Shown here: one piece after another, positions 1 through 17,277 of the stretch
Position numbering within the stretch: position 1 is the stretch's first letter
Layout: each line of letters starts with the position of its first letter
Assembly (NCBI GenBank): GCA_019429365.1
Contig: JAHYJD010000007.1
Coordinates: forward strand, 5,073 to 69,072
Direction of reading: 5' to 3'
Source: Bacteroidales bacterium
GTDB taxonomy: Bacteria > Bacteroidota > Bacteroidia > Bacteroidales > UBA7960
Length of the DNA: 64,000 nucleotides
Translations under genes and position numbers: made by a program
The notes under the pieces: model-generated
The model's database searches: none
What the model saw: only the letters and a program-made list of their open reading frames with translations
What the model was told of the DNA's origin: nothing

Positions 1-977
1 TTCATACCGGCCAGCATTTCGACCACAACATGAGCCAGGTGTTTTTTGAGCAAATGCAGATTCCGGAGCCTGCCTATAACCTCGGAATTCACAGCCTGCC
101 ACACGGGGCTATGACAGGACGCATGCTTGAGCGGGCCGAGGAGGTGATGCTTCACGAAGACCCCGACTGGGTTATGGTGTATGGCGACACCAACTCTACC
201 CTGGCTGGCGCACTGGCTGCAAAAAAAATCGGACTTCCGGTAGCGCATGTCGAAGCAGGCCTGCGGTCGTTCAACATGAGCATGCCCGAAGAGATTAACC
301 GCATTCTGACCGACCGCATTGCCGATCTGCTCTTTTGCCCCACCCAAACAGCTCTCGACAACCTGGAACAAGAAGGTTTCGACCACTTCGAAAGCAGGGT
401 GTTGCTTACAGGCGATGTAATGTACGATGCTTACCTGCATTTTTCGGATTTGCGTAAAGCGCCAAAAACACTGAAACTCCCAAAAAAATTCGGACTGGTA
501 ACGCTTCACCGGGCCGAAAACACCGACCAACCCGCCACCCTGAAGCAAATTATGGAAGCATTAAACCAAATTGCCGATCAGCTGCCCCTGGTGCTTCCTG
601 TTCACCCCCGCACGTTCAAAGTTCTAAGCCACGGCAAACTTCCTGCCTTGAACAAAAACATTATAATATCGGAACCAGTAAGCTACCTTGAAATCCTGTA
701 CTTGCTTGAAAAATGCCAGATGGTACTCACCGACAGTGGTGGACTGCAAAAAGAAGCCTATTTCGCCGAAAGGCCTTGCATAACCCTGCGCAACGAAACG
801 GAGTGGACTGAGCTGGTAGAAGCCGGTTACAATATTGTGGCCGGAAACAAAAAGAAAAATATTTACAAGGCATTTGGCCAGTATTCAAAAGAGCGGCCCG
901 AATTCAGCGCTGGATTGTATGGAATTGGTAATGCCGCCGGCATGATCGCTGATGCTTTTCAGCAGACCACACTCTAA
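1..977 (+). CDS. wecB: UDP-N-acetylglucosamine 2-epimerase (non-hydrolysing), 5' end cut by window edge
   Basis: Frame 3 is open from base 3 (HTGQHFDHNMSQVFF...). Family motifs are VYGDTNSTLAGALAA, HVEAGLRSFN and PEEINR. Stop is TAA at 975-977. Confidence 0.85.
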   Translation, partial: HTGQHFDHNMSQVFFEQMQIPEPAYNLGIHSLPHGAMTGRMLERAEEVMLHEDPDWVMVYGDTNSTLAGALAAKKIGLPVAHVEAGLRSFNMSMPEEINRILTDRIADLLFCPTQTALDNLEQEGFDHFESRVLLTGDVMYDAYLHFSDLRKAPKTLKLPKKFGLVTLHRAENTDQPATLKQIMEALNQIADQLPLVLPVHPRTFKVLSHGKLPALNKNIIISEPVSYLEILYLLEKCQMVLTDSGGLQKEAYFAERPCITLRNETEWTELVEAGYNIVAGNKKKNIYKAFGQYSKERPEFSAGLYGIGNAAGMIADAFQQTTL

Positions 978-982
978 AAAAA

Positions 983-1003
983 GAAGGGGCACAAGGCCCC
1001 TTC
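983..1003. terminator. bidirectional hairpin terminator between convergent wecB and gdh
   Basis: Stem gaaggggc (983-990) pairs with gccccttc (996-1003) around a 5-nt loop. An A-run lies on the left and a T-rich stretch on the right. Confidence 0.7.
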
Positions 1004-1027
1004 CTTTTGGAAATCAACTTCAACCAT

Positions 1028-2422
<1,395 letters not shown>

Positions 2423-2474
2423 TCACTTTTTGAAATGATTAATATTTTTATGGAAAACATATTTTTTTTGTTTT

Positions 2475-2489
2475 TTTCTTGCATATGTC
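2475..2489 (-). promoter_or_regulatory. 15-mer GACATATGCAAGAAA (read on - strand), also present upstream of the NuoE-like operon
   Basis: Exact 15/15 match to 10669-10683. It lies about 104-118 nt upstream of the gdh paralog 1 ATG, in the gene's orientation, and is followed by an A/T tract in both copies. Confidence 0.3.
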
Positions 2490-2551
2490 AATAATTTTTA
2501 TATAGAATATTTTGACAATAAGGCTTGCGAAAAGAAAACTATTTGTGATGG

Positions 2552-2559
2552 TAATTTTG
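2552..2559 (+). promoter_or_regulatory. candidate Bacteroidota -7 promoter box (TAATTTTG)
   Basis: Matches the TAnnTTTG consensus in the AT-rich divergent intergenic region, about 60 nt upstream of ATG 2621. No convincing -33 element was seen. Confidence 0.3.
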
Positions 2560-2620
2560 TAATTTCATTGCACGAAATTTTTATTATTGCGGCAGCGTAA
2601 GGTATAAACCCAGCCGAAAA

Positions 2621-5600
2621 ATGGAAAATAAAGAAGAATCGGGAACAATCAGGGAATCAGGATTTTTTTCAAGCAGCGCTAATCAGGCTCTTTCTATCAG
2701 CCAGGAAGAGATACAGCGCTTAATTGCCGAAAAGCGGGAGCGCCTGAAGGAGTTGGGAGCCATCAACCAGACCGTATCTATTTTAAAGGAAGAGCGGCCT
2801 GTTGGTGAAATGCTCCGCGAAATTGTGAAAGTACTTCCGCCGGCCTGGCAGTTTCCCGAAAATGCAGTAGCCCGCCTCAAATATGGCCAGGAAGTATATT
2901 TGAGCAGCAATCGCTTTCGCGAAAGCCGATGGTCGCAACGCAGGTCGTTCGAAACCATCGATGGACGCGAAGGATCACTGGAGGTTTTTTACCTGGCCGA
3001 ACACCCCCAGTTGGACGAAGGTCCATTCCTGATGGAAGAGCGTCAGCTCATCAGCAACATTGCCAACCTCATTACCGGCCATCTCAATACTCAGATCGGA
3101 AAAAATCTTCTTAAAAAGTCGGCAGCTGACCTTCAGGAGGCTACCCAGTCGCGCAAAGAGCAGGAACATGCAGCCAAAAACCGCCACCTGCTGCAAAAGT
3201 TTTTAATAAAGCACAACTCCGACCGCGATATTTATCACGACCTGATGCAATACAAGGTGCGTGAAATTTTGCTGGTTGCCAATCTCTACGATGCATATAA
3301 CATTGAGCAGGAAGGTCGGTTCTTTGAACAGGTTACCGGCGAATACTACCAGCTAAACCTGTCGTCGGCTCCGCGCATTACAGGCGTTTCCACACCCGAA
3401 GAAGCCCTGGAGAAACTACAGGAAAAACATTTCGACCTGGTTATTGTGATGATGGGCGTTGATAAAACGACACCGATTCAATTGAGCCGGATCATTAAGC
3501 AGATTTATCCAAGCACTCCCATTTTCCTGCTTCTAAACAACAACAGCGATATTGCCATGTTTGAAGATGGCAACAAGCAAATTGCACCCATCGACAAAAT
3601 TTTTGTTTGGAACGGCGACTCCAAGGTTTTCCTGGCCATGGTGAAATACAACGAAGATCGCTATAATGTGGAAAACGACATCCGGATTGGGATGGTTAGG
3701 GTCATTCTGCTGGTAGAAGATTCTGCACGCTATTATTCGCGCTACCTGCCCATTCTTTATTCCATTGTCATTGAACAGACGCAGCAGCTCATAGAAGAAG
3801 TAAATACCGACGAGCTCTATAAGTTGCTGAAGATGCGTGTAAGGCCCAAGGTTTTGCTGGCTTCAAATTACAAGGATGCAGTGCAGCTTTTCAACAAATT
3901 CAAGGACAATCTGCTTTGCATTATTTCAGATGCCCGGTTTGAAAAGGACGGCAATTACGCAGACGATGCCGGTATTAGCCTGATCAATTATGCCAAGGAG
4001 CAGATACCCGACCTGCCTACAGTGCTGCAATCGTCCGACCCCGCCAATGCTCAAAAAGCCTACGAACTGAAAGCCACCTTCATCAACAAAAACTCAGAGA
4101 ACCTGAAGCAGGACCTGCAGAGTTTTATCAACTATTACCTGGGCTTCGGAAATTTCGTTTACAAGGACGAAGAAGGCCGCAAAGACATCGCCATTGCCCG
4201 CTCCATGAAGGAGTTTCAAAATCATTTGCGCACCATTCCTGAGAAATCGCTCATTTATCATGCCCGAAAGAACCACTTCTCGCACTGGCTTATGGCCCGC
4301 GGCGAGATTCAGATTGCCAAGCGAATAAAGCCTTTAAAAGTCGACGACTTTCAGTCGCCCGGCAGCCTGCGCGAGTTTCTGATGAATGTTATTGAAGAAT
4401 GTATTCGCGACAAGCAAAAGGGTAAGGTGATAAATTTTGAAGAGTCGGCCCTGCTCGACGAAACCAACATCGTGAGCATGGCAAGCGGGTCACTCGGAGG
4501 TAAAGGACGGGGCCTGGCATTCATCAACATGCTCATCAACAATTTCAATTTCGCCGAACTGGTTCCCGACATCTGCATACTTTCACCCCGAACCACCATA
4601 ATCGGCACTGAGGAGTTTGAACGTTTTCTGCAAAATAATAATATTGCCGAAAAGATAACCCACGAAACCGACTACGAAACACTGAAGGAAATTTTCATGG
4701 CCGGGCGGCTTACCGAAAGCCTCCAGCGAAGACTTAAAGCTTACCTTTCGATCATTCACCGCCCCTTGGCCATCAGGTCTTCCAGCCTTTTTGAAGACTC
4801 CTTAATGCAACCCTTTGCGGGAATCTTCGACACATTTTTGCTGCCCAACAACCATCCCGACATAAAGGTAAGACTCGATCAGGCCATGAACGCCATTAAG
4901 CTGGTGTTTGCCTCCATCTTCTCTCCCACTGCTTCGGCCTATTTCCAGGCGGTAAATTATAAAATTGAAGAAGAAAAAATGGCCGTGATCATACAAGAAG
5001 TGGTGGGCAATGAGTATGAAGGGTATTTTTATCCTCACATCAGCGGGGTGGCGCAGTCGTTCAACTTTTATCCTTTCTCTTACATGCAGCCCGACGAGGG
5101 CTTTGCAGTAGCTGCCGTAGGGTTGGGAAAATACGTGGTGGAAGGAGAAAAAACATACCGCTTTTCACCGGTTCATCCCCAACTCGAAATTTATACCCCG
5201 CGCGACCTGTTCAAAAATTCACAGGTGCATTTTTTTGCCATCGACATGAAAAAGCAGGATATAAACTTGCTTGAAGGCGAAGATGCCGGCCTGACAAAAC
5301 TCGAAATTGACAAAGCCGAAATGCATGGTGCACTAAAACATTGCGCATCCGTATTCGACATCTCCAACGAGCGAATCATTCCCGGCATTACCCACCCTGG
5401 ACCACGGGTCATCAATTTTGCCAACATTCTTAAGTACGACTACATACCACTGGCAAAAACCATTGAGGTAATCCTGGATATTGTTTCTGAATCGATGGGC
5501 ACGCCTGTAGAAATTGAATTTGCCGTCGACCTCAACAAAGACAAGCAGGGACGGGCAGCTTTCTACTTGCTGCAGATCAAACCGCTTATCAAAAACATTA

Positions 5601-6178
5601 TTGATACTGAAATTTCCATTGACAAGATTGATAACGAGCGACTGATGCTGTATTCTGAAAACGGCATGGGTAATGGACGAATCGATAATATTTACGATGT
5701 TATTTATGTGGATGTGGACCATTTCGACCGCTTGAAAACAGAGAAGATGCGCGATGAAATAGAAATGCTTAACCAGCAAATGGTTAAGGAAAATCGCAAA
5801 TACATCCTTATTGGGCCTGGGCGCTGGGGCACCCGCGATCGTTTTATTGGCATTCCGGTGGTATGGTCACAGATTTCCAATGCCAGAATAATAGTGGAAG
5901 TTAGCCTCGAAAACTTCCCGCTCGATGCTTCCCTGGGCTCGCACTTCTTTCATAATGTCATTTCAATGAATGTGGGATATTTTTCTGTCAAACACAACGA
6001 CCTGATTGACTATATTAACTGGGACGAATTGAACAAGGCCAGCGTGAAGCAGCAAACGCGCTTTTTCAGGCACGTGCGGTTCGAAAAGCCAGTAGAGGTA
6101 GTTATGGACGGCAAAAAACGCGCTTCGCTCATTTACTTCCCACAAGAAGATAATATTGCTGAAAACGAAACCTTATGA
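2621..6178 (+). CDS. multidomain protein: coiled-coil + GAF-like sensor, two receiver-like modules, PPDK_N-type ATP-grasp (PEP/pyruvate-binding) domain, conserved C-terminal module
   Basis: 1185-aa ORF. The sensor region contains EGPFLMEERQLISNIANLI. Receiver-like modules are ILLVANLYD...FDLVIVMM and ILLVEDS...CIISD...FINK. ATP-grasp motifs are GGKGRGLAFIN, IRSSSLFEDS..PFAGIFDT and MAVIIQEVVG. The C-terminus is GPGRWGTRD...GIPVVWSQIS...LGSHFFHN. Confidence 0.7.
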   Translation: MENKEESGTIRESGFFSSSANQALSISQEEIQRLIAEKRERLKELGAINQTVSILKEERPVGEMLREIVKVLPPAWQFPENAVARLKYGQEVYLSSNRFRESRWSQRRSFETIDGREGSLEVFYLAEHPQLDEGPFLMEERQLISNIANLITGHLNTQIGKNLLKKSAADLQEATQSRKEQEHAAKNRHLLQKFLIKHNSDRDIYHDLMQYKVREILLVANLYDAYNIEQEGRFFEQVTGEYYQLNLSSAPRITGVSTPEEALEKLQEKHFDLVIVMMGVDKTTPIQLSRIIKQIYPSTPIFLLLNNNSDIAMFEDGNKQIAPIDKIFVWNGDSKVFLAMVKYNEDRYNVENDIRIGMVRVILLVEDSARYYSRYLPILYSIVIEQTQQLIEEVNTDELYKLLKMRVRPKVLLASNYKDAVQLFNKFKDNLLCIISDARFEKDGNYADDAGISLINYAKEQIPDLPTVLQSSDPANAQKAYELKATFINKNSENLKQDLQSFINYYLGFGNFVYKDEEGRKDIAIARSMKEFQNHLRTIPEKSLIYHARKNHFSHWLMARGEIQIAKRIKPLKVDDFQSPGSLREFLMNVIEECIRDKQKGKVINFEESALLDETNIVSMASGSLGGKGRGLAFINMLINNFNFAELVPDICILSPRTTIIGTEEFERFLQNNNIAEKITHETDYETLKEIFMAGRLTESLQRRLKAYLSIIHRPLAIRSSSLFEDSLMQPFAGIFDTFLLPNNHPDIKVRLDQAMNAIKLVFASIFSPTASAYFQAVNYKIEEEKMAVIIQEVVGNEYEGYFYPHISGVAQSFNFYPFSYMQPDEGFAVAAVGLGKYVVEGEKTYRFSPVHPQLEIYTPRDLFKNSQVHFFAIDMKKQDINLLEGEDAGLTKLEIDKAEMHGALKHCASVFDISNERIIPGITHPGPRVINFANILKYDYIPLAKTIEVILDIVSESMGTPVEIEFAVDLNKDKQGRAAFYLLQIKPLIKNIIDTEISIDKIDNERLMLYSENGMGNGRIDNIYDVIYVDVDHFDRLKTEKMRDEIEMLNQQMVKENRKYILIGPGRWGTRDRFIGIPVVWSQISNARIIVEVSLENFPLDASLGSHFFHNVISMNVGYFSVKHNDLIDYINWDELNKASVKQQTRFFRHVRFEKPVEVVMDGKKRASLIYFPQEDNIAENETL

Positions 6179-9153
6179 CCCTGAAATCGAAATACAAATA
6201 CAACGAACAATTTGCCACGGACCATTACGAATTTGCAGAGATAGCCTACGAGGACCTCATGCAGAAACGCATTATCAACGTATTGCTGATTTGCAGCAAC
6301 TACGATGCTTTTATGCTCGAGGAAGACGGGCGCATAAACGAAAAGATTTTCCTGGAATACACTTCCAAAAATTTGCGCTACCCACCGCAGTTTACCAAAG
6401 CCAGCTCGTCAGAAGAAGCGTTTGAATACCTGGAGAAAAAGGAGTTCGACCTGGTCATAACCATGTTGAATGTAGGTAAGATCGATGCCTTTGAAATGGC
6501 CAAAAAGGTCAAAAAACGCTACCCGAAAATTCCCATTGTGGTGCTGACGCATTTTTCGCGCGAGGTTTCTATTAAACTTTCGAACGAAGACCTTAGCGGC
6601 ATCGACTATGTGTTTTCATGGCTGGGCAACTCCAGCCTGCTGCTGGCCATCATAAAGCTGCTGGAAGACCGCATGAACGCCGAATTCGACATCGATGTGA
6701 TTGGCGTGCAGGCCATTTTGCTGGTCGAAGACTCTATCAGGTATTATTCATCGTACCTGCCTTCTATTTACAAAGTTATTTTCGATCAGACCAACGAATT
6801 GATGACTGAAGGGCTGAACGAACACCGCAAAACAATGCGAATGCGGGCCAGACCTAAAATTTTGCTGGCCAAAACCTACGAAGAGGCCGTCAGCCTTTTT
6901 GAGAAATACAATCAGAACCTGCTAGGAGTAATCTCTGATATCAGCTATTCCCGTAAGGGGAAAAGAGACAGCCAGGCGGGCATCAGGTTTGCCCGGCACA
7001 TTCGAAAAGTGGATAGCCAGATTCCGATCATGCTTCAATCGTCGGACGACTGGCAGGAAGAAATCATGCAGGAGATCAGGGTGGCATTCATAAACAAATA
7101 TTCTAAAACCCTGTTGGTAGAACTTAAGCAGTACATTCGGGAGAATTATGGCTTTGGCGATTTTGTCTTTAAGGATCCATTGACAAGCCGCGAGGAGGAT
7201 CGCGCCAACAACCTGCATTCGCTCCAGGTAAAAATTGCCAGGGTGCCCCCAAAAAGCCTTGAATACCATGTTTCAAACAACCATTTTTCGCGTTGGCTCA
7301 AAGCCAGGGCGCTTTTTTCTTTAGCCAATGTGTTTGCCGAAAAAAGTCGTGAAGATTTTAACAACATTGAAGAAGTAAGAAACTACCTGATTGACACGAT
7401 TGCCAACTACCGCCGCATGAAGGGGCGGGGAATCATCGCCAGCCATTTCGACGAGTACGCTGTTTTTACACGCCTTGGCGATGGGCAGTTGGGCGGAAAG
7501 GCACGTGGCCTGGCTTTCATTGACTCAGTAATAAACAAGCACAAAATAATGTATAACTGGGAAGGCGTTACGGTGGCCATTCCCCGAACAGTGGTCATTA
7601 CCACCGATATGTTCGACGAGTTCATGGAAGAAAACAGCTTGTACGACCTGGCCCTTTCCAATACCAGCGACGAGGAGATACTTGACCGTTTTGTGCAGTC
7701 GCGCACCCCTTCCAGGCTCAAATCCTACGTCAGAGATATTGTGGGGTTTTTTAATGCCCCTTTGGCCATTCGCTCCAGCAGCCTGTTGGAAGACAGTCAT
7801 TATCAGCCTTTTGCCGGTGTGTATTCCACATACATGATTCCCAACAACCACGCCGAAAAAACGGTGCGCATGCAACAGCTCGAACAAGCCATAAAAAGCG
7901 TGTATGCTTCCGTTTTTTTCCGCGAAAGCAAAGCCTATATTGCAGCTACCAGCAATGTGATCGACGAAGAAAAAATGGCCGTGGTAATACAGGAAGTGTC
8001 GGGTCGCTCCTATGGCAACAAGTTTTACCCCACGCTGTCGGGAGTAGCCCGTTCGGTAAACTTCTACCCTATTGAACCAGAACGCTATGAAGATGGCGTG
8101 GCCAACATTGCATTTGGCCTGGGAAAAACCATTGTGGAAGGAGGGATTTCTTTGAGATTCTCCCCTAGATATCCTGAAAAATCCTTGCAGCTCTCCAACC
8201 CTGAATTTGCTTTGCGCGATAGCCAGAAAGAATTCTACAGCCTTAACCTCGACCCCGAAAAGTTCATCCCCAGCATCGACGATGCTGACAACCTTTTTAA
8301 ACTCAGGATTAAGGAAGCCGTGTCTGATGCCTCTCTTAAATATGTTGCATCTACCTACGACTACGAGGACCACATGGTTCGCGATGGTCTTTACGATACT
8401 GGAAAAGTCATCGTTACTTTTGCCAATATTCTGAGGCACAATGTTTTTCCTTTGGCAGGTATACTTCAAAACCTGCTCGAGATTGGCCAGAAGGAAATGA
8501 ACAACCAGGTGGAAATCGAATTTGCAGCCAACATGGATGTACCAACAGGACAAAATAAAGTTTTTTACTTCCTTCAGATCAGACCCGTGGTCGAAATGCA
8601 GGAAAAACTCCGCATTAAGGTTAACACCTGCTTCCCCGAAAAGTCTATCATTATCAGCCAGCAGGCTTTGGGCAATGGGCTGATTGAAAACATCCGCGAT
8701 TTCATTTATGTGAAGCCCGACGCCTTCAATCCGGCCAACACAAAGGAAATAGCAGCCATCATTGACCACCTCAACAGCCAGTTTGTAAGCAACGGTCGCA
8801 ACTATATTTTGGTAGGACCCGGGCGCTGGGGGTCGGCCGATCCCTGGCTAGGTATACCGGTAAAATGGGCCCAGATTTCGGCCGCACGGCTCATTGTGGA
8901 AGCGGGCATGAAGGACTTCCATATCGATCCCAGCCAGGGAACCCACTTTTTTCAGAACCTGACCTCTTTCAACGTAGGGTATTTTACCGTAAATCCCTTT
9001 ATCGGAGAGGGGCATTACGACCTGGATTTTCTGAACCAGAAAAAGGCCGTTTACGAGGACCAGTTCGTCAGGCATCTTAAATTCCACGACCCTATCATCA
9101 TTAAAATAGATGGAAGCAAAAAGGCCGGAATCGTTTTAAAACCAGAAAAATAA
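6175..9153 (+). CDS. paralog of the preceding gene: two receiver-like modules + PPDK_N-type ATP-grasp domain + conserved C-terminal module (no GAF-like N-terminus)
   Basis: 992-aa ORF whose ATG overlaps the upstream stop (ATGA at 6175-6178). Motifs are VLLICSNYD...FDLVITML, ILLVEDS...GVISD...FINK, GGKARGLAFID, IRSSSLLEDS..PFAGVYST, MAVVIQEVSG, and GPGRWGSAD...GIPVKWAQIS...QGTHFFQN. Confidence 0.7.
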   Translation: MTLKSKYKYNEQFATDHYEFAEIAYEDLMQKRIINVLLICSNYDAFMLEEDGRINEKIFLEYTSKNLRYPPQFTKASSSEEAFEYLEKKEFDLVITMLNVGKIDAFEMAKKVKKRYPKIPIVVLTHFSREVSIKLSNEDLSGIDYVFSWLGNSSLLLAIIKLLEDRMNAEFDIDVIGVQAILLVEDSIRYYSSYLPSIYKVIFDQTNELMTEGLNEHRKTMRMRARPKILLAKTYEEAVSLFEKYNQNLLGVISDISYSRKGKRDSQAGIRFARHIRKVDSQIPIMLQSSDDWQEEIMQEIRVAFINKYSKTLLVELKQYIRENYGFGDFVFKDPLTSREEDRANNLHSLQVKIARVPPKSLEYHVSNNHFSRWLKARALFSLANVFAEKSREDFNNIEEVRNYLIDTIANYRRMKGRGIIASHFDEYAVFTRLGDGQLGGKARGLAFIDSVINKHKIMYNWEGVTVAIPRTVVITTDMFDEFMEENSLYDLALSNTSDEEILDRFVQSRTPSRLKSYVRDIVGFFNAPLAIRSSSLLEDSHYQPFAGVYSTYMIPNNHAEKTVRMQQLEQAIKSVYASVFFRESKAYIAATSNVIDEEKMAVVIQEVSGRSYGNKFYPTLSGVARSVNFYPIEPERYEDGVANIAFGLGKTIVEGGISLRFSPRYPEKSLQLSNPEFALRDSQKEFYSLNLDPEKFIPSIDDADNLFKLRIKEAVSDASLKYVASTYDYEDHMVRDGLYDTGKVIVTFANILRHNVFPLAGILQNLLEIGQKEMNNQVEIEFAANMDVPTGQNKVFYFLQIRPVVEMQEKLRIKVNTCFPEKSIIISQQALGNGLIENIRDFIYVKPDAFNPANTKEIAAIIDHLNSQFVSNGRNYILVGPGRWGSADPWLGIPVKWAQISAARLIVEAGMKDFHIDPSQGTHFFQNLTSFNVGYFTVNPFIGEGHYDLDFLNQKKAVYEDQFVRHLKFHDPIIIKIDGSKKAGIVLKPEK

Positions 9154-9264
9154 ATTTCCTGGCTTTCCTTTGTTATCTGAAAATTAAGGGCTAATTTCGT
9201 CCCGGAAATCAACGTTAATTTTTTAACATCACTCCTATTAAAAACTTTTTAAATCTGTTAAATT

Positions 9265-10602
9265 ATGGACTTAGAAAAGATCATGGCAGACCTGGAGAAA
9301 AAAAATCCGGGACAACCAGAATTTCTTCAGGCAGTAAAGGAAGTACTTGAAACGATTGAAGACGTTATCAAAGAAAACCCCAAGTACGAGGCAAACAACA
9401 TTGTTGAAAGAATTATTGAGCCCGACCGGGTAATCTCCTTCAAGGTAGAATGGCTCGACGACAAAGGCAATGTGAACGTAAACCGCGCTTTCCGCGTGCA
9501 GTTCAACAACGCTATTGGTCCTTACAAAGGTGGCATGCGTTTTCACCCCAGTGTAACCCTCGGGGGTCTGAAGTTCCTGGGTTTTGAACAAACCTTCAAG
9601 AACGCCCTTACAACCCTGCCCATGGGTGGTGCTAAAGGCGGCAGCGATTTCAACCCTAAAGGAAAATCCAACGCTGAAATCATGCGTTTCTGTCATGCGC
9701 TGATGTCAGAACTTTTCAAATATATTGGCCCCGACACCGACATTCCCGCTGGCGACATTGGCGTGGGTGGTCGCGAAATTGGCTACATGTACGGAATGTA
9801 CAAGAAACTTACCAACACCCACAATGGCGTGTTTACCGGCAAAGGCCGCAACTGGGGCGGCAGCCTCATCCGCCCGGAAGCCACCGGTTTCGGTAACGTT
9901 TACTTTGCAGAGGAAATGCTCAAGACCCGCGGCGACTCCATGAAAGGTAAGATCGTTGCCGTTTCAGGTTTTGGAAACGTATCATGGGGCTCAATCATTA
10001 AAGCCACCCAGCTTGGTGCCAGAGTGGTTACCATTAGTGGTCCCGACGGTTACGTATACGATCCTGATGGCATCAGCGGAGAAAAAATCGACTACCTGCT
10101 CGAGCTGCGCGCCTCCAACCAGGACATCGTGAAGCCATACACCTATGAATTCCCCAATGCCCAGTTTTTCGAAGGCAAGCGTCCTTGGGAAGTAAAGTGC
10201 GATGTAGCCCTCCCATGCGCTATCCAGAACGAACTCAACGCCCAGGATGCCCAAAACCTGGTTAACAATGGCGTAATTTGCGTTTCTGAAGGTGCCAACA
10301 TGCCCTGCACCCCCGAAGCCATGGAAATTTTGCTTAAGGCAAAAATCCTTTACGCTCCCGGAAAAGCCTCTAACGCCGGTGGTGTAGCCACTTCGGGCCT
10401 GGAACAGACCCAGAATGCCATGAAACTGAACTGGACTGCCGAAGAAGTGGAAGAAAAACTTCGCCAGATTATGATAAACATCCACGAAGCTTGTGTGAAG
10501 CACGGCAAGGAAGAGGATGGATACGTTAACTATGTGAAAGGCGCCAATGTGGCTGGCTTTATAAAAGTTGCCGACGCCATGATCGATCAGGGCGTTATTT
10601 AA
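9265..10602 (+). CDS. gdhA: glutamate dehydrogenase, paralog 2
   Basis: 445 aa with GPYKGGMRFHP, LPMGGAKGGSDFNPKG and the Rossmann motif GFGNVSWG. It is colinear with paralog 1 along its whole length. Confidence 0.9.
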   Translation: MDLEKIMADLEKKNPGQPEFLQAVKEVLETIEDVIKENPKYEANNIVERIIEPDRVISFKVEWLDDKGNVNVNRAFRVQFNNAIGPYKGGMRFHPSVTLGGLKFLGFEQTFKNALTTLPMGGAKGGSDFNPKGKSNAEIMRFCHALMSELFKYIGPDTDIPAGDIGVGGREIGYMYGMYKKLTNTHNGVFTGKGRNWGGSLIRPEATGFGNVYFAEEMLKTRGDSMKGKIVAVSGFGNVSWGSIIKATQLGARVVTISGPDGYVYDPDGISGEKIDYLLELRASNQDIVKPYTYEFPNAQFFEGKRPWEVKCDVALPCAIQNELNAQDAQNLVNNGVICVSEGANMPCTPEAMEILLKAKILYAPGKASNAGGVATSGLEQTQNAMKLNWTAEEVEEKLRQIMINIHEACVKHGKEEDGYVNYVKGANVAGFIKVADAMIDQGVI

Positions 10603-10626
10603 GCTCAATTCATTCAGAGAAAAAAA

Positions 10627-10656
10627 AGCTGTGCGGAAAACCGCACAGCTTTTTTT
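10627..10656 (+). terminator. rho-independent terminator after gdh paralog 2
   Basis: 10-bp stem agctgtgcgg/ccgcacagct, aaaa loop, then a T6 run. An A7 run upstream allows bidirectional use. Confidence 0.8.
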
Positions 10657-10668
10657 ATAAAAATAAAC

Positions 10669-10683
10669 GACATATGCAAGAAA
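10669..10683 (+). promoter_or_regulatory. 15-mer GACATATGCAAGAAA shared with the gdh paralog 1 upstream region
   Basis: Exact match to the - strand of 2475-2489. It lies 86-100 nt upstream of the NuoE-like ATG (10769). Confidence 0.3.
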
Positions 10684-10703
10684 TATTTTTTAAAAAAATA
10701 TTT
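10681..10703. repeat. 23-nt perfect A/T palindrome (aaatatttttt-a-aaaaaatattt)
   Basis: Read directly from the sequence. It overlaps the 3' end of the shared 15-mer, upstream of the NuoE-like operon. Confidence 0.6.
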
Positions 10704-10768
10704 TTTTAAATCTGATCAAAATCTTCAATTTTCCTTAATTTTCGCCCATAAACCAAAACACAGGTTAC

Positions 10769-11290
10769 ATGCGAGTGAAAAGGATTGCCCCCGAACCCGT
10801 TGCCCCTGTTGCCGAACCCAGTGTCGACCTTTCGTTAATAGACTCATTAATAGCGAAATACAAAGGGAAACAAGGCAACCTCATTCCCCTCTTACAGGGC
10901 ACACAAGAAATTTTTGGCTTCATTCCGCGCGAAGCTTTCCTGAAACTGCACAGCGACACCGGTCTCAGTCTCAGCGAGCTATACGGGGTGGCAACCTTCT
11001 ATGCACAGTTCAGGCTTACCCCTTCCGGGAAACACATAATTAAAATGTGCCACGGTACTGCTTGCCATGTGCAGAGTGTAACTGCCATTACCGACGAGCT
11101 GCTCGATTTCCTTGAGGTAAAAGACGGTGAGACTACCAGCGATGGATTGTTTACCATCGAAACAGTGGCCTGTCTGGGTTGCTGCTCCCTGGCACCGGTG
11201 ATGATGATCGACGAGGAGACCCATGGTAAGCTCACCCCAAAGGAAGCATTGAAAATCATTAAAGAAATACGGCGCAACGAAGCCCTTTAA
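10769..11290 (+). CDS. NuoE/HydC-like thioredoxin-fold [2Fe-2S] ferredoxin subunit
   Basis: 173 aa with Cys motif MCHGTACH...VACLGCCSLAPV, typical of NADH dehydrogenase subunit E-type proteins. Confidence 0.8.
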   Translation: MRVKRIAPEPVAPVAEPSVDLSLIDSLIAKYKGKQGNLIPLLQGTQEIFGFIPREAFLKLHSDTGLSLSELYGVATFYAQFRLTPSGKHIIKMCHGTACHVQSVTAITDELLDFLEVKDGETTSDGLFTIETVACLGCCSLAPVMMIDEETHGKLTPKEALKIIKEIRRNEAL

Positions 11291-11308
11291 ACCTTAAAGC
11301 CAGAGTGT

Positions 11309-13087
11309 ATGAAAAAGACAACCGTAATAGTGGGTTTGGGAAGTTGCGGCATAGCTGCAGGGGCTGGAAAAACTTTCAGTGAGTTTCAGCGGATAAAGGC
11401 CGCCGACAAACTCGATTTCGAGCTTAAAAAAACCAGTTGCGTGGGTATGTGTTTCCGCGAACCCCTGGTGGAAATCATCGACGAAAGCGGAAGCTACCTT
11501 TACGGACAGGTCGACCCAGCCAAAGCCGACGAGATCATCGAAAAACATATAAAAAACTTTTCTCCCATTCCTGAATACATTGTTCAGAGCGAGAGGTTCC
11601 CCACTCCCGAGCAGTCGTTTTTCGAGGGGCAGGTAAAAATTGCGCTTCGCAACTGCGGGCATATGGATCCTGAGAACATTGAAGAATACGAAGCCCGCAA
11701 TGGTTACGCAGCTATTCGCAAAATTGCAAACAACTTTATGAATCCCGATCAGGTGATACAAATGGTTATCGATTCGGGCATGCGTGGCCGCGGAGGCGGT
11801 GGTTTTTCCACCGGCATGAAATGGAAGTTTGCCCGCAACTACGACGCTCCGCAGAAGTACGTGATTTGCAATGCCGACGAGGGTGACCCGGGCGCTTTTA
11901 TGGACCGCTCCATACTCGAGGGCGACCCACACGGCGTGCTGGAAGGGATGATTATTTGCGGCTATGCCATTGGCGCCAGCGAAGGTTACATTTATTGCAG
12001 GGCCGAATACCCACTGGCCATTAAGCGCCTGAACATTGCCATTGAACAAGCCCGCAAAAAGGGTTACCTGGGCAAAGGCCTCTTTGGTATAGAGCATTTT
12101 AATTTCGACATTAAAATTAAAGAAGGCGCAGGAGCTTTTGTGTGCGGTGAAGAAACCGCCCTGATCGCCTCCATCGAAGGCAGGCGTGGCATGCCACGGC
12201 GCAGACCGCCATTCCCGGCCCAGTCGGGTCTGTGGAAAAGTCCTACCAACATTAACAATGTCGAGACCTTCGTCAACATTCCATGGATCATCTTCAACGG
12301 ACCGCAGGCATATGCTGCCATGGGCACCGAAAAGAGCAAGGGCACCAAGGTTTTTGCCCTTACCGGAAAAATTAAGCACGGCGGCCTTGTTGAAGTTCCC
12401 ATGGGCATGACCATCAGAGATATTATATACAACCTTGGTGGCGGAATTGCCAATGGTAAGAAGTTCAAAGCTGTGCAGCTGGGCGGCCCTTCGGGAGGCT
12501 GTGTCCCAGAATACCTCTCGCACACCCAAGTCGATTACGACTCGGTAAACGCCACCGGCGCAATCATGGGATCAGGCGGCATGGTGGTTATGGACGAGAC
12601 TACTTGTGTGGTGGATATTGCGCGTTTCTTCCTCGATTTCACACAGAAAGAGTCGTGTGGGAAATGTACATTTTGCCGCATTGGCACCAAGCGTATGCTC
12701 GAAATCCTGACGCGGATTACACAAGGCGAAGGCCAAGAAGGCGACATCGAACTGCTTGAAGAACTCGCCCACAACATCAAGGACGGATCATTGTGCGGGC
12801 TTGGACAAACAGCACCTAACCCGGTGCTTACCACCATCAAATATTTCCGCGACGAATATGAAGCACATATCCGCGACAAAAAGTGCCCGGCACTTAGCTG
12901 CAAAAAACTACTTACATACAAGGTCGACCAGGAGAAATGTACGGGTTGCATGGCCTGCACCAAAGGCTGTCCGGTCGATGCCATCGAAGGCGGCAAGCGC
13001 GAACCCCATTTTATCCTGCAGGAAGTTTGTATTAAATGCGGTGTATGCTTCACCAAATGCAAGTTTGGCGCTATCCAATTAAGTTAA
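11309..13087 (+). CDS. NuoF/HydB-like FMN- and NAD(H)-binding flavoprotein subunit with extra Fe-S domains
   Basis: 592 aa. N-terminal thioredoxin-like domain has GLGSCGIAAGA...CVGMCFREP. Then come GRGGGGFSTGMKW, the Fe-S motif ESCGKCTFCRIG, and a C-terminal 2x[4Fe-4S] region (CTGCMACTKGCP, CIKCGVCFTKC). Confidence 0.85.
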   Translation: MKKTTVIVGLGSCGIAAGAGKTFSEFQRIKAADKLDFELKKTSCVGMCFREPLVEIIDESGSYLYGQVDPAKADEIIEKHIKNFSPIPEYIVQSERFPTPEQSFFEGQVKIALRNCGHMDPENIEEYEARNGYAAIRKIANNFMNPDQVIQMVIDSGMRGRGGGGFSTGMKWKFARNYDAPQKYVICNADEGDPGAFMDRSILEGDPHGVLEGMIICGYAIGASEGYIYCRAEYPLAIKRLNIAIEQARKKGYLGKGLFGIEHFNFDIKIKEGAGAFVCGEETALIASIEGRRGMPRRRPPFPAQSGLWKSPTNINNVETFVNIPWIIFNGPQAYAAMGTEKSKGTKVFALTGKIKHGGLVEVPMGMTIRDIIYNLGGGIANGKKFKAVQLGGPSGGCVPEYLSHTQVDYDSVNATGAIMGSGGMVVMDETTCVVDIARFFLDFTQKESCGKCTFCRIGTKRMLEILTRITQGEGQEGDIELLEELAHNIKDGSLCGLGQTAPNPVLTTIKYFRDEYEAHIRDKKCPALSCKKLLTYKVDQEKCTGCMACTKGCPVDAIEGGKREPHFILQEVCIKCGVCFTKCKFGAIQLS

Positions 13088-13114
13088 GAATTTCCGTTCC
13101 GAAAAAAATATCTT

Positions 13115-16100
13115 ATGAGTAAACTTAATATCATTCTCAACGGACGCATTGTGCAGGGGCTTCCCGGCGAAACCATTCTGGAGCTGGCTCGCCGACAAGG
13201 CATTGAAATACCCACCCTTTGTCACGACGATCGCCTGGAGCCCTTTTCTTCGTGTTACGTTTGCGTAGTGGAGGTGGAAGGCATGCGCGGTTTGCAGCCA
13301 TCCTGTTCTACCAAGATCACCGAGGGCATGCGCATAGAAACGGAAAATGAAAGGGTGAAAAAATCCCGAAAAATGTCGCTGGAGCTTATGGCCAGCAACC
13401 ATTATGCCGATTGCGTTGCACCTTGTCGCGAAACTTGCCCGGCCGGAGTAGATGTACAGGGCTATATTGCCATGATCAACAAAGGCATGCATCGCGAGGC
13501 TGTGGAGCTGATAAAAAACACCAATCCCTTGCCAGCCATTTGTGGAAGGGTATGTGTGCGTCCATGCGAACTGGCCTGCCGCCGAAACCTGGTCGAAGGT
13601 GTGGGTGTGGGCATCGACTACCTGAAACGTTATACTTCCGATATTGATCTGGAATCGCATGTTCGCTTCCTGCCGAACCAGAAACCCGAAACCGGCAAAA
13701 GAGTGGCTATCATTGGAGCTGGTCCGGGAGGGCTAAGCGCCGCATTCTTCCTGGCAAAAGAAGGCCATCATGTAGAAATTTTCGAAGGAAACGCACATGC
13801 CGGAGGCATGCTCAGATATGGCATTCCGCCATACCGCCTGCCAAACGACATTATTGACAAGGAGGTGGAAGGCATAACTGCCCTTGGCGTGGAAATCCAT
13901 TACCACATGAAGTTAGGCGAAAACCTCAGCTATGCCGAACTAAAAAGCAACTTCGATGCCGTGATTCTGGCCATTGGCTCACAAAACGGCACCCGTATTG
14001 GCTGCGAAAACGATGATGCAGGGAATATCTTTTCGGGGATCGACTTTTTGCGCAACATGGAGGCCACCGGGCAGAAATACGACTTCAGCGGCAAAAAAGT
14101 AGGTGTGATTGGCGGAGGTAATACGGCCATGGACTGCTGCCGCACCGCAAAACGATGCGGTGCAAAGGAGGTAACCGTAATTTACCGTCGTACCGAAAAG
14201 GAAATGCCTGCCAACCCTATTGAAATACACGAGTCGAAACTCGAAGGAATCAACTATCTGTTCCTTACCGCCCCGGCCAGGGTAAACCCAGATGATAACG
14301 GCAACATAAAGTCTTTGACTTGCTTCCGGATGGAACTGGGCGAGCCAGATGCCTCAGGCAGGCGCCGCCCCGTTAAGGTCGAAGGCTCAGACTTTGATGT
14401 GGAGCTCGACATTGTACTGGCGGCCATTGGACAAAAAACCAACGTTAATTTCATCAACGACATTAGCAACCATGCCGGGCAGGAACTTATCATTAACAAA
14501 TGGGGCGACATTGCTGCTGACCCGAAAACCCTGCGCACCAGTATCGACAACGTGTTTGCCTGCGGCGATGGGGTAACCGGTCCTGCCACACTCATCGAGG
14601 CCATTGCTCAAGGACGTTTAGCGGCACAGAGCTGCAACAAATACCTGCACGGGAAGGAAGTTACTCCGCCACCATACGAATTCCTGAGCAAACGCGACAA
14701 CTTCCAGGAACAGCTTAAATCTGATTATGAGGCCTGGTATGAAAAACAGTGGCGCGAAGAAATGCCTACACTCGACCCAGCTGCCCGCGACAACTTTGAG
14801 GAAGTGGAACTGGGTTATACTACGGATGCTGCCATAAAGGAAACACGCAGATGCATGGAATGCGGCTGCAGCGAACTCTATACCTGCGACCTGAAAAAGT
14901 ATTCCACACATTACGAGGCCCGGCAAGAACACTTTAAGGGTGACTTTCGCAATTACCAGGTGCGGTTCGATCATCCGTTTGTGGAGATCGACAACAACAA
15001 GTGTATCCTTTGCAGTCGCTGTGTGCGTATTTGCGATGAAGTGGTGGGTGCTAAAGCCCTGGGACTGATCAATCGCGGCTTCGATACCTTTGTGGCTCCC
15101 AGCCTGGGAGAATCACTGCTGCATACCAATTGCGAGTCATGCGGAATGTGTATCGACACTTGCCCTACCGGCGCCATTACTGAGAATGTACCCTTCAAAC
15201 CCGGCCCGGTTCCCCTCGATACTTTTAAAACCATTTGTAATTATTGCTCGGTGGGTTGCCAAATCAATCTCCATCACAAATCGGGTTTCTTTGCCAGGGC
15301 AACGGGTAGTAAAGGTTTGATCAACAAGGATGGCAGCATTTGCCGCTACGGGAAATTCGGCTATCGCTACCTGAACGACCAAAGCCGGATCACCAAACCG
15401 CTTCTCAAAGAAAACGGAAAATTCAAACAAATCAGTTTCGATAAGGCATTTGAAATCATAAAGGAAAAGATTACCAAGGCCGATCCTGCCCAAACCGCAT
15501 TTTATGTGGGTGCACGACTGACCAATGAAGAAATGTACCTTGCCCAAAAAATTGCCCGGACCGGAGCCAAAACCAATAATATATCGAGTTTTCATTATAT
15601 GGATCGTGGCTCGGGTTATTCTGAAAACAGCAGAAACAACGTGCCTTTCGATCAGATTTATTCGGCCCGCCTGATTTATATCATGGGCAGCGAACTAAAT
15701 ATGGAAAATGCCGTGCCTGGATTTTATGTCAATAATCTGAGGCAAACAAACGGAATCAAGGTGGAGGTTATTACCTCTCAGGAGCCAAGCAGCTTAGAAC
15801 ATAAAGCCGATGCGCTGTTGCGAATAAAATCTTACGAACATTTCCTCAGGGCAGCAAACCATTACATACTGAGCAAACAATTGCAAAACAGCGTTTTTAT
15901 TGATGACCATTGCAATGGGTTTGAGGAATATCAAGAGGTTTTGTTGGCTGAAGATTTTGATAGTTTACTGGAAAAAGCTGGCTGTAGTAAGATTGAGCTG
16001 GCCACTTTCGTGGAAAACTATAATAATGAGCACCAAGCCGTGATCCTTTTTTCTGAGAAACATTTAAGCTCCGGTGCCTGCCACGAAATGCACAACCTGG

Positions 16101-16810
16101 CTTATCTAACCGGAAAATCGGGAAAGAATGCAAGTGGATTGATCAGCTTGAAGGAAAAGAACAATTCCCAGGGACTGTTTGACATGGGCGCATGCGCGGC
16201 CATAGCCCCTGGCGGAAAAAATATGACCTCCGGAAAGGTTCGGGAACACCTCCAAAAAGAGTGGAAAATCAGCGAGTTGCCAGATGAAATCAACCAGGAC
16301 CAATGGTCATTGCTAAGAAACGGCCTGATTAAGAACGCTTTCATTCTTAGCGAAGACCCCGTTGGATGCGCCATTAAAAAGGAAGAAATTCAGCAAATTC
16401 TGGAGAAAATTGATTTTCTTGTGGTTCAGGATCTCTTCTTGAGCGAAACGGCAGCCATGGCCGACCTGATTTTGCCGGCATCGCTGCACTTCGAAACCGG
16501 AGGTAGTTTTACCAACACCCAGAAGTTTATTCAGCAGTTTGATGCCACCTTTGCCTCTGCTAATGAAATGAGTAGTTTTGAACAGCTGCAAAGGCTGGGC
16601 AAATCACTGGGATTGGAATTAAACTATGAGAGTCCGGCCGCTGTGCTGCTGGAGGCTGCCTCCGTTATTCAACGTGCACCTGAAAATGGCTGGGTACCCT
16701 ACCGCTTTGTTACCCCAACCTCCGTCCACCCGCCCCGCCGCTTCGACCATGGTTGCGATTACCTGGTGAAGTATTTTGACGATGCATGGGAAAAAGCATT
16801 TAACCATTAA
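13115..16810 (+). CDS. fusion protein: N-terminal [2Fe-2S] ferredoxin + GltD-like NAD(P)H/FAD oxidoreductase module + NuoG-like Fe-S region + molybdopterin-oxidoreductase-like domain
   Basis: 1231 aa. 2Fe-2S region is CHDDRLEPFSSCYVCVVEV. GltD-like motifs are CPAGVDV, ICGRVCVRPCELACRR, VAIIGAGPGGLSAA, VIGGGNTAMDC and CGDGVTGPATLIEAIAQGR. Fe-S motifs are CMECGC, CILCSRCVRIC and CESCGMCIDTCP. ICNYCSVGCQINL marks the MopB-type N-terminal cluster. Confidence 0.8.
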   Translation: MSKLNIILNGRIVQGLPGETILELARRQGIEIPTLCHDDRLEPFSSCYVCVVEVEGMRGLQPSCSTKITEGMRIETENERVKKSRKMSLELMASNHYADCVAPCRETCPAGVDVQGYIAMINKGMHREAVELIKNTNPLPAICGRVCVRPCELACRRNLVEGVGVGIDYLKRYTSDIDLESHVRFLPNQKPETGKRVAIIGAGPGGLSAAFFLAKEGHHVEIFEGNAHAGGMLRYGIPPYRLPNDIIDKEVEGITALGVEIHYHMKLGENLSYAELKSNFDAVILAIGSQNGTRIGCENDDAGNIFSGIDFLRNMEATGQKYDFSGKKVGVIGGGNTAMDCCRTAKRCGAKEVTVIYRRTEKEMPANPIEIHESKLEGINYLFLTAPARVNPDDNGNIKSLTCFRMELGEPDASGRRRPVKVEGSDFDVELDIVLAAIGQKTNVNFINDISNHAGQELIINKWGDIAADPKTLRTSIDNVFACGDGVTGPATLIEAIAQGRLAAQSCNKYLHGKEVTPPPYEFLSKRDNFQEQLKSDYEAWYEKQWREEMPTLDPAARDNFEEVELGYTTDAAIKETRRCMECGCSELYTCDLKKYSTHYEARQEHFKGDFRNYQVRFDHPFVEIDNNKCILCSRCVRICDEVVGAKALGLINRGFDTFVAPSLGESLLHTNCESCGMCIDTCPTGAITENVPFKPGPVPLDTFKTICNYCSVGCQINLHHKSGFFARATGSKGLINKDGSICRYGKFGYRYLNDQSRITKPLLKENGKFKQISFDKAFEIIKEKITKADPAQTAFYVGARLTNEEMYLAQKIARTGAKTNNISSFHYMDRGSGYSENSRNNVPFDQIYSARLIYIMGSELNMENAVPGFYVNNLRQTNGIKVEVITSQEPSSLEHKADALLRIKSYEHFLRAANHYILSKQLQNSVFIDDHCNGFEEYQEVLLAEDFDSLLEKAGCSKIELATFVENYNNEHQAVILFSEKHLSSGACHEMHNLAYLTGKSGKNASGLISLKEKNNSQGLFDMGACAAIAPGGKNMTSGKVREHLQKEWKISELPDEINQDQWSLLRNGLIKNAFILSEDPVGCAIKKEEIQQILEKIDFLVVQDLFLSETAAMADLILPASLHFETGGSFTNTQKFIQQFDATFASANEMSSFEQLQRLGKSLGLELNYESPAAVLLEAASVIQRAPENGWVPYRFVTPTSVHPPRRFDHGCDYLVKYFDDAWEKAFNH

Positions 16811-16821
16811 AAAGAAAAAGT

Positions 16822-17277
16822 ATGAAAACCTTCAGTTCGCTCGATGAGATCCTCGACTTTGCCATGAATGCCGAGCAGGAAGCCGTTGATTTCTACACTC
16901 AGCTAGCCACACAGCAGAAAAATCAGCAAATAAGGGAAGTTTTCCTGGAATTTGCACGGGAGGAAGTGAACCACAAGGCTCGTCTGCAGAAAATAAAAGA
17001 CGAGCGGCTTTTCGACATGGAGGTGGAAAAGGTAACCGACCTGAAGATTGCCGATTATGTAATCAGCGCCAAGCCCTCGCCCAATATGGAATATGCTGAC
17101 GCGCTGGTGCTGGCCATGAAAAAGGAAAAGGCTGCTTTTAAGCTATATACCGCCCTTTCTGAGCGCACCCACAATACCGAACTCAGCAAGGTATTCAAGG
17201 CACTTGCCATTGAAGAATCGAAACACAAACTTCGCTTCGAACTTGAATACGACGAATATGTGATGCGCGAAAACTAA
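16822..17277 (+). CDS. ferritin-like / rubrerythrin-family diiron protein (no rubredoxin domain)
   Basis: 151 aa with paired E...ExxH signatures (AEQEAVDFY, REEVNHK, AIEESKHK). It starts 11 nt after the fusion gene. Confidence 0.65.
   Translation: MKTFSSLDEILDFAMNAEQEAVDFYTQLATQQKNQQIREVFLEFAREEVNHKARLQKIKDERLFDMEVEKVTDLKIADYVISAKPSPNMEYADALVLAMKKEKAAFKLYTALSERTHNTELSKVFKALAIEESKHKLRFELEYDEYVMREN

Follow-up and report, generated by a model that had tools for sequence, protein, structure and literature searches.

Receiver-fused PPDK_N ATP-grasp proteins that end in an orphan domain are genetically coupled to glutamate dehydrogenase

Two overlapping open reading frames (ORFs) of a Bacteroidales bacterium, here called A and B, sit between two family-I glutamate dehydrogenase (GDH) genes on contig JAHYJD010000007.1 (GCA_019429365.1). 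The window is the whole 64,000-nt stretch that was analyzed (positions 5,073 to 69,072 of the forward strand of the contig), and all positions below are counted from its first letter unless a contig is named. Both ORFs join receiver (REC) domains to a PPDK_N ATP-grasp domain and end in a C-terminal module of ~170 aa that, judged from sequence and fold searches, is a previously undescribed, family-specific end domain. The family to which A and B belong is genetically coupled to GDH across phyla. The REC-PPDK_N combination was already known; the partner domain and the GDH context are new. Domain content makes enzyme-type response regulators the best explanation of A and B, and we tentatively propose receiver-gated, ATP-driven phosphotransfer via a C-terminal histidine (H1108 of A, H924 of B), with GDH as the most likely acceptor.

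ORF A (1185 aa) occupies positions 2621..6178 and ORF B (992 aa) positions 6175..9153, both on the plus strand. The stop codon of A lies on the start codon of B in a 4-nt ATGA overlap (6175..6178, +), an arrangement consistent with translational coupling. Upstream, gdh1 (1028..2416, minus strand), encoding a GDH of the ~50-kDa, hexameric type, is divergent from A; gdh2 (9265..10602, +), a second family-I gene, follows B by 111 nt in the same direction. This layout, including the ATGA overlap and the two GDH genes, had been given in a preliminary description made from the letters alone, and the coordinates together with Pfam and Protein Data Bank (PDB) matches bear it out. The same description called A and B paralogs from the first receiver-like module to the C-terminus, and BLASTP aligned A205-1176 with B25-992 at 679 bits and 38% identity over 975 aa. 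From the first receiver onward A repeats the layout of B, i.e., a pseudo-receiver, an intact receiver, a helical linker, PPDK_N and the ~170-aa module. By the limits of this alignment, an N-terminal extension of ~200 aa is private to A and has no counterpart in B. Orthologs of ORF A were 66-91% identical to it.

The link to glutamate metabolism proposed in the preliminary description turned out to be stronger than the sequence alone had shown. A survey of gene neighborhoods found an adjacent GDH in 67 of 144 loci (39/76 genome loci and 28/68 metagenome loci) and in all seven of seven look-ups of distant members. The genome-contig set consisted of 80 loci carrying B-type proteins 56-96% identical to B. 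Within it, gdh lay no more than 2.5 kb downstream in 33 of the 63 usable loci, and the order B followed by gdh was observed in 21/23 loci at ≥70% identity to B and in 10/37 loci at 50-62%. An A-type paralog stood immediately upstream of the B-type gene in 34 of 55 genome loci. The metagenome set comprised 80 loci 36-52% identical to a short form of the family, 68 of them usable. The adjacent GDH was mostly on the same strand, with gaps down to 4-5 nt in metagenome loci. Six members only ~37-39% identical to B each had a GDH of ~380-480 aa on the same strand, 20-105 nt downstream; two of the six were receiver-less forms of ~575 aa, one of them named Desulfobacteraceae. When ORFs flanking 80 loci were clustered, GDH formed the largest cluster (31/80 loci) and an OmpR-type regulator the next (8/80), followed by a glutamate-synthase-domain protein and a PyrK/NfnA-like protein at five loci each; no neighbor among these flanking clusters recurred comparably to GDH. 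Across members from Bacteroidota, Lentisphaerota/Victivallales and Desulfobacterota, down to ~37% identity, GDH was the sole recurrent neighbor. In Lentisphaerota/Victivallales loci (L171 at 1360-4482 of its minus strand, L021 and L026) the 50-kDa GDH is replaced by a large GDH of 1040 aa composed of Bac_GDH_CD and ELFV_dehydrog. Because the GDH class swaps in these loci, the linkage appears to track GDH function rather than one GDH lineage.

Both ORFs were confirmed to encode the PPDK_N ATP-grasp domain that the preliminary description had read from short motifs. Pfam PPDK_N (PF01326) matched residues 624-991 of A (4490..5593, +) with 135.8 bits and residues 438-812 of B (7486..8610, +) with 133.8 bits, against a cut-off of 27. 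All of the motifs quoted in that description were located in A and B, those of the ATP-grasp being GGKGRGL at A626 and GGKARGL at B440, RSSS at A719 and B533, and IQE at A791 and B605. In an alignment of 77 sequences, which takes in A-type and B-type proteins as well as short forms only ~37% identical, residues K442, R533, S534, S535, E539, D540, Q606, E780, E782 and Q801 of B were invariant (77/77); A carries K628, R719, E964, E966 and Q985. Going by the family, the invariant residues would be those with which PPDK_N domains bind nucleotide and Mg, and with all of these kept the ATP-grasp of A and B is predicted to be catalytically intact. The 77-sequence alignment also served as input for an AlphaFold2 (AF2) model of full-length B (pLDDT 84.9, pTM 0.71), in which the linker runs to about residue 430 and is followed by the ATP-grasp (431-805), a tether (806-823) and a C-terminal α/β domain (824-990). 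Foldseek matched the ATP-grasp of the model to rifampin phosphotransferase (RPH; 5hv1, E 5e-12) and to pyruvate phosphate dikinase (PPDK; 1kbl, E 4.5e-6). RPH was the best match by sequence as well (E 3e-5), and the ATP-grasp of the Listeria RPH, together with single receiver domains, made up the only PDB sequence relatives of A and B.

What normally completes such enzymes was absent. Neither the swivel phosphohistidine domain (PEP-utilizers) nor the phosphoenolpyruvate (PEP)/pyruvate TIM barrel (PEP-utilizers_C) was matched by Pfam at E≤0.1 in A or B, and a motif search of both proteins returned zero occurrences of GG.TSHA or TSH, in agreement with the preliminary description, which had found neither the GG.TSHAA motif nor the barrel. 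The proteins end ~180 aa past the ATP-grasp. The best partial NCBIfam matches were PigC/RedH, PEP synthase and rifamycin phosphotransferase, and they covered the first part of the ATP-grasp only, with scores far short of the cut-offs; the rifamycin phosphotransferase equivalog NF041857 scored 23.2 and 21.2 bits against a cut-off of 999, with coverage of the ATP-grasp alone. A few homologs are named 'phosphoenolpyruvate synthase' or else 'pyruvate, phosphate dikinase' in their source records, which would make A and B ordinary enzymes of this kind. This identity has next to no probability and is already refuted by domain content: PEP-utilizers, PEP-utilizers_C and GG.TSH are lacking, NCBIfam models of the PEP synthase/PPDK type reached 18-50 bits against cut-offs of 598-1063, and the chain stops about 180 aa past the ATP-grasp. 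On domain content, these database names are wrong for members of the family.

In place of the missing domains, both proteins carry the C-terminal module, at residues 1008-1174 of A (5642..6142, +) and residues 824-992 of B (8644..9150, +). In B it is linked to the ATP-grasp by a low-confidence tether (residues 806-823; 8590..8643, +), where pLDDT averaged 68 and 65 in blocks within residues 801-820 and fell below 50 at residues 809-811. Its motifs are GPGRWG (A1065/B881) and GSHFF (A1106) or GTHFF (B922). Invariant positions of the B module are P882-G-R-W-G886, D889, G893, W898, E909, S920, G922, H924 (nt 8944-8946), F925, N928, Y936 and D979; R1068, D1073, E1093, S1104, H1108 (nt 5942-5944), N1112 and D1163 mark the module of A. 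Among 509 proteins fetched, the His of G(S/T/A)HFF was present in 502/502 modules, and it lay 36 residues past GRWG in 494/496 regular-expression matches. Modeled in isolation, the B module was predicted with pLDDT 90.4 and pTM 0.89. The His sits at a helix N-cap, on the least confident loop of the model; numbered within the module, helix 113-121 begins one residue before His114. From their low pLDDT, this loop and the tether are both read as flexible.

The preliminary description had singled out this invariant His as a possible divergent swivel histidine. Its conservation held throughout; homology to swivel domains was not supported. A module profile gave only noise against PDB sequences and Pfam (longin, E 0.056; Peptidase_S9, E 0.065), and 25 module members run against Pfam gave no match. 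Foldseek of the module against 350,542 PDB chains returned a best E of 0.058 at a TM of ~0.26 and matched no swivel domain, though a full PPDK (1kbl), RPH 5hv1 and further PEP-utilizing enzymes are in that set; a fold search of BFVD produced nothing at E≤1e-3. Alignment by hhalign with the swivel domains of E. coli PpsA, PtsI and the PPDK of locus L041 gave a probability of 0.4%, in what is a weak test with three sequences. With Pfam, the motif search, Foldseek and hhalign all negative, the module was rejected as a divergent swivel domain. Since the swivel searches were negative, the earlier wording describes at most a functional analogy, and the 'loop-[ST]-His-helix-strand' pattern of the module resembles TSHAA by analogy at most. 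The tethered position of the module and its invariant [STA]-His at a helix N-cap in the model are compatible with a functionally analogous phospho-carrier. A Pol-beta-type nucleotidyltransferase identity, prompted by an NTP_transf_2 match in the double protein P0193, was likewise rejected, because that match (residues 1554-1594) lies beyond the second module (1329-1448) and belongs to an additional domain fused there; NTP_transf_2 matched none of the sequences in the module alignment.

PPDK and PEP synthase complete catalysis with swivel and TIM-barrel domains, which A and B lack. This lack, together with GDH adjacency, would also suit a non-catalytic nucleotide sensor, in which the ATP-grasp only binds ATP, ADP or AMP and GDH is controlled allosterically by binding, with no phosphotransfer. 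We consider such a sensor improbable. The ATP-grasp catalytic and Mg residues and the C-terminal His are invariant across lineages ~37% identical, and strict invariance of this kind is the pattern expected of chemistry, not of binding alone.

An exhaustive search with B811-992 recovered 1,767 representative clusters (50% identity) at E≤1e-3, of which 402 were at E≤1e-30; the family spans at least 1,767 such clusters. Thousands of family sequences come from anaerobes of sediment, digesters and freshwater. The module was always C-terminal in its host proteins, whose lengths fell into classes of ~575, ~715-735, ~990, ~1150 and ~1520-1650 aa; proteins of the longest class hold two copies. The ~575-aa hosts (P0210, P0419, P0459) consist of PPDK_N and the module only, with no REC, and therefore ATP-grasp plus module appears to be the core unit. 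In P0126, P0136 and P0193 (1520-1650 aa) two PPDK_N-module units are fused in one chain, and P0193 has a canonical Pol-beta-type nucleotidyltransferase domain (FGS...DVDLL) at its end. These double-core fusions hint, as a Rosetta-stone pointer, that two cores cooperate, as A and B might. On a Victivallales contig (L027, 3526-9544), two B-type genes stand in tandem, their proteins 68% and 66% identical to B, with no A-type copy and no gdh within the fetched flank; here a paralog pair seems to have arisen by another route. Two Desulfobacteraceae-like contigs with the short form (L083, L085) share the same panB, panC and DUF2520 genes upstream of the core and gdh, and downstream they carry genes for a DnaJ/DUF1232 protein, a holin-like protein and, within about 5 kb, a stand-alone receiver; L083 has a gene for a cyclic-nucleotide-monophosphate (cNMP)-binding protein after gdh.

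The N-terminal halves of A and B carry the signaling domains. In the AF2 model of B, residues 33-176 and 178-324 form two (βα)5 units with the CheY-like receiver fold, and Foldseek matched this half to tandem receivers, namely PleD 1w25 (E 2e-7) and 3luf/3mf4, as well as to single receivers. Pfam Response_reg scored 38.2 bits in B against a cut-off of 30.2; in A, the match was partial (25.5 bits) and fell on the first receiver. That first domain, REC1 (3257..3691 in A; 6271..6702 in B; both +), is a pseudo-receiver with Met at the phospho-acceptor position (Met277 of A, Met97 of B) and Phe at the Lys position (Phe147 of B). The acceptor column was Met in 58/58 sequences of the 77-sequence alignment, again with Phe at the Lys position. 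The second, REC2, is intact, with E366, D367, D437 (nt 3929-3931), S471 and K490 in A (3695..4138, +) and E185, D186, D255 (nt 6937-6939), S289/S290 and K308 in B (6706..7146, +); its acidic pocket, Asp, Ser and Lys were each kept in ≥53 of the ~59-60 sequences with the domain. The receiver fusion claimed in the preliminary description thus survives for REC2, which had not been singled out there, and its first receiver-like module proved to lack the Asp. As REC2 has its acidic pocket, Asp, Ser and Lys all in place, gating via REC2, not REC1, is plausible. A helical linker resembling DUF5752 follows in A (4139..4468, +; 24.4 bits against a Pfam cut-off of 23, residues 526-602) and in B (7147..7464, +; 21 bits, below that cut-off; model helices at 347-416), and some orthologs carry a precomputed match to DUF5752 (PF19027). 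We found no paper on DUF5752, a family without known function. The A-specific N-terminal domain (residues 26-170; 2696..3130, +) is kept in A-type orthologs with a mean column identity of 66%. An extension present in A alone had been read earlier as a GAF-like sensor; the extension stands, and the GAF label gained no significant support, as a 15-sequence profile gave no Pfam GAF match and no significant Pfam or PDB match (the best relevant PDB match, 4g3v, had E 0.028 over an N-terminal stretch of 48 residues only). It is possibly a ligand sensor.

The invariant His shares a polypeptide with the intact receiver Asp, and the two could also form a phosphorelay of their own. The ATP-grasp would load the C-terminal His, from which the phosphoryl group would pass to the REC2 Asp of the same or the partner protein or to a separate response regulator. 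In such a system A and B, driven by an ATP-grasp, would take the place of a histidine kinase and report on energy or nitrogen status. EI-Ntr, which combines GAF with PEP-driven His phosphotransfer, is a functional analog in nitrogen sensing, the second commonest neighbor is an OmpR-type regulator (8/80 loci), and a stand-alone REC gene occurs within about 5 kb downstream of the short forms in L083 and L085. However, the REC-less core is widespread and still paired with gdh, the OmpR neighbor is rare, and the GDH linkage is left unexplained, so that we regard such a relay as unlikely.

In the scheme that we favor, phosphotransfer with GDH as the acceptor, a histidine kinase would phosphorylate the REC2 Asp (D437 of A, D255 of B) and thereby relieve inhibition; in A, ligand binding to the additional N-terminal domain may add to this. 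Using ATP to (pyro)phosphorylate a histidine is common to all known PPDK_N enzymes. Here, the ATP-grasp would (pyro)phosphorylate the C-terminal His (H1108/H924), which would stand in for the missing swivel domain. With no swivel domain or TIM barrel, another phospho-acceptor is needed; the phosphoryl group would pass to one held by the conserved R/D/E/S/N pocket of the C-terminal domain. That acceptor would be the neighboring GDH, for which the modification would be a covalent on/off switch. Joint action of A and B, probably as a hetero-oligomer, is suggested by their ATGA overlap and by the double-core fusions that occur naturally. Phosphotransfer itself, as put forward in the preliminary description, is something we infer. 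The heavy signaling decoration, the presence of one paralog beside each gdh and the precedent of ppsR, encoded next to its target ppsA, lend tentative support to a protein target. It is more doubtful that the family represents a new class of protein-modifying dikinase, in which the His of a new carrier fold is loaded before transfer to GDH.

Several points weigh against GDH as the acceptor. We know of no PPDK_N enzyme that phosphorylates a protein, the characterized ones using small molecules or glucans. The modeled C-terminal fold appears to have no recognizable likeness to phosphohistidine carriers, and the many invariant polar residues of the module suggest an active site for small molecules more than a surface on which a protein docks. 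That the partner GDHs fall into two classes suits a reaction-level link no less than a protein-specific one. About half of the surveyed loci have no nearby GDH, and no cognate histidine kinase was found for A and B, with no histidine kinase gene adjoining them in the window.

These points lead to a close rival, almost as likely as GDH modification: a small-molecule acceptor at the glutamate/2-oxoglutarate node. A and B would then be small-molecule (di)kinases whose substrate is a GDH-node metabolite, for instance glutamate, glutamine, 2-oxoglutarate, ammonia or a nicotinamide cofactor; substrate binding and catalysis would fall to the C-terminal domain, and the receivers would merely tune flux. 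The dense invariant polar set of R884, D889, E909, S920, H924, N928, Y936 and D979 is typical of an active site, the best partial NCBIfam matches named above are to PigC/RedH, PEP synthase and rifamycin phosphotransferase, and tight GDH operons with gaps of 4-5 nt fit a pathway-level link, as does the GDH class swap. Every characterized PPDK_N enzyme known to us uses a non-protein acceptor; among them is the L-glutamine kinase Cj1418 (PMC10971088). Yet pathway enzymes do not usually carry signaling domains such as the pseudo-REC plus REC pair and, in A, the added sensor-like domain, the presence of a paralog beside each gdh paralog suggests protein pairing, and we know of no pathway that needs such a step beside GDH.

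A and B have the PPDK_N fold and catalytic residues in common with RPH (5HV1/5HV6), PEP synthase and PPDK. Unlike A and B, these enzymes carry a GG.TSH swivel domain and a substrate domain, either rifampin-binding or a PEP/pyruvate TIM barrel; A and B have one orphan ~170-aa domain instead, with receivers added at the N-terminus. Cj1418 of Campylobacter jejuni keeps the canonical phosphohistidine domain, has no receivers and belongs to a capsule-modification cluster, not beside gdh. Annotated as PPDK/PEP synthase, it was found to be a kinase of L-glutamine that uses ATP (PMC10971088). By acting on a glutamate-family amino acid it shows the PPDK_N superfamily able to work at this node. Tandem-receiver regulators of the PleD type likewise place a REC and a pseudo-REC before an enzymatic output, but in A and B the pseudo-receiver comes first, reversing the order, and the output is an ATP-grasp with the orphan domain, not GGDEF.

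Receivers combined with pyruvate phosphate dikinase have been listed in censuses of response regulators. Galperin et al. (2018; PMC5847659) termed the combination 'Bacteroides-like', and Maule et al. (2015; PMC4395418) reported PPDK effectors to be highly associated with aspartate-less receivers, which agrees with REC1 of A and B. Very probably these census-listed regulators are the family of A and B. In the portions of the two censuses available to us, REC-PPDK is merely listed, with no function, missing swivel or TIM barrel, module or GDH linkage given (PMC5847659, PMC4395418). Our literature search found no paper that assigns a function to REC-PPDK_N, notes its lack of swivel and TIM barrel, or describes the C-terminal module or the link to GDH, and none on PPDK_N together with GDH, on the 'pyruvate-binding domain' name or on reversible GDH inactivation in Bacteroides. 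With PpsR and PpsA, the gene of a regulator adjoins that of the enzyme which it modifies covalently (ppsR next to ppsA in E. coli K-12), much as in the layout of A, B and gdh. Modification of GDH by the family is, unlike that of PpsA by PpsR, a proposal. GlnE with glutamine synthetase, AceK with isocitrate dehydrogenase and PpsR with PpsA are similar in logic only; their folds and chemistries are unrelated to those of A and B.

Both flanking GDH genes encode full ELFV_dehydrog_N plus ELFV_dehydrog proteins, and the solved structures closest to them are those of E. coli GdhA and Clostridium symbiosum GDH. For gdh1, Pfam scored 175 bits (ELFV_dehydrog_N) and 305 bits (ELFV_dehydrog), and the best PDB matches were E. 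coli GdhA 4fcc/3sbo (E 1e-182). The gdh1 ORF was listed from a TTG (462 aa), and alignments to solved GDHs start around residue 16-20; Met16 (nt 2371), giving 447 aa, is the likelier start. Past the GxGNV dinucleotide-binding loop gdh1 reads ...TLSDSNG... and gdh2 ...TISGPDG..., a position that we take to separate the NADP-type (E. coli) from the NAD-type (C. symbiosum) GDH, and gdh2 scores relatively higher than gdh1 against NAD-specific 1bgv. The two enzymes may differ in coenzyme and direction. The GDH partner in distant loci was mostly gdh1-like.

Directly after gdh2, positions 10769-16810 (+) hold a trio of genes, whose products are a 173-aa NuoE-like 2Fe-2S protein, a 592-aa NuoF-like FMN/FeS protein and a 1231-aa protein in which Fer2_4, Fer4_20 and Pyr_redox_2 are fused to NuoG/molybdopterin-like domains. 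We read the Fer2_4-Fer4_20-Pyr_redox_2 part as GltD/NfnB-like, and the trio looks like a flavin-based NAD(P)H/ferredoxin module. Its synteny with gdh2 is kept in close relatives, and the trio stands beside family members in L043, L049 and L078, with gdh not alongside in L043 and L049. At the other end, a UDP-N-acetylglucosamine 2-epimerase gene (30-977, +; Epimerase_2, 321 bits), whose ORF starts inside the domain at profile position 24, lies upstream of gdh1 and is kept there in close relatives. An Rfam scan of positions 1-17000 found no RNA element. A promoter and terminator scan of positions 900-11400, which does not cover Bacteroidota promoters, gave counts equal to the shuffle background, and it showed no plus-strand terminator-like site in the gap between B and gdh2, with counts at background level.

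GDH is one of two gates between carbon and nitrogen metabolism, and how bacteria regulate it post-translationally is, to our knowledge, understood mainly in a few model organisms. Here, a large family joins a well-understood ATP-pyrophosphoryl-transfer engine to an orphan domain and is tied to two GDH classes across phyla, which points to ATP-dependent control or a partner reaction at the nitrogen/carbon junction. If GDH is modified, or a phosphorylated metabolite made at this node, new regulatory or metabolic chemistry would be involved. Either outcome would assign a function to a response-regulator output class so far listed without explanation in censuses and would put right the 'PEP synthase/PPDK' labels, which mislead. 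With gdh immediately downstream, the receiver-less forms of ~575 aa lend the question to a direct test in vitro. Should GDH be the acceptor, the family would provide a covalent, two-component-controlled GDH switch in anaerobic Bacteroidota, Lentisphaerota and Desulfobacterota, a counterpart to the GlnE/GlnD control of glutamine synthetase.

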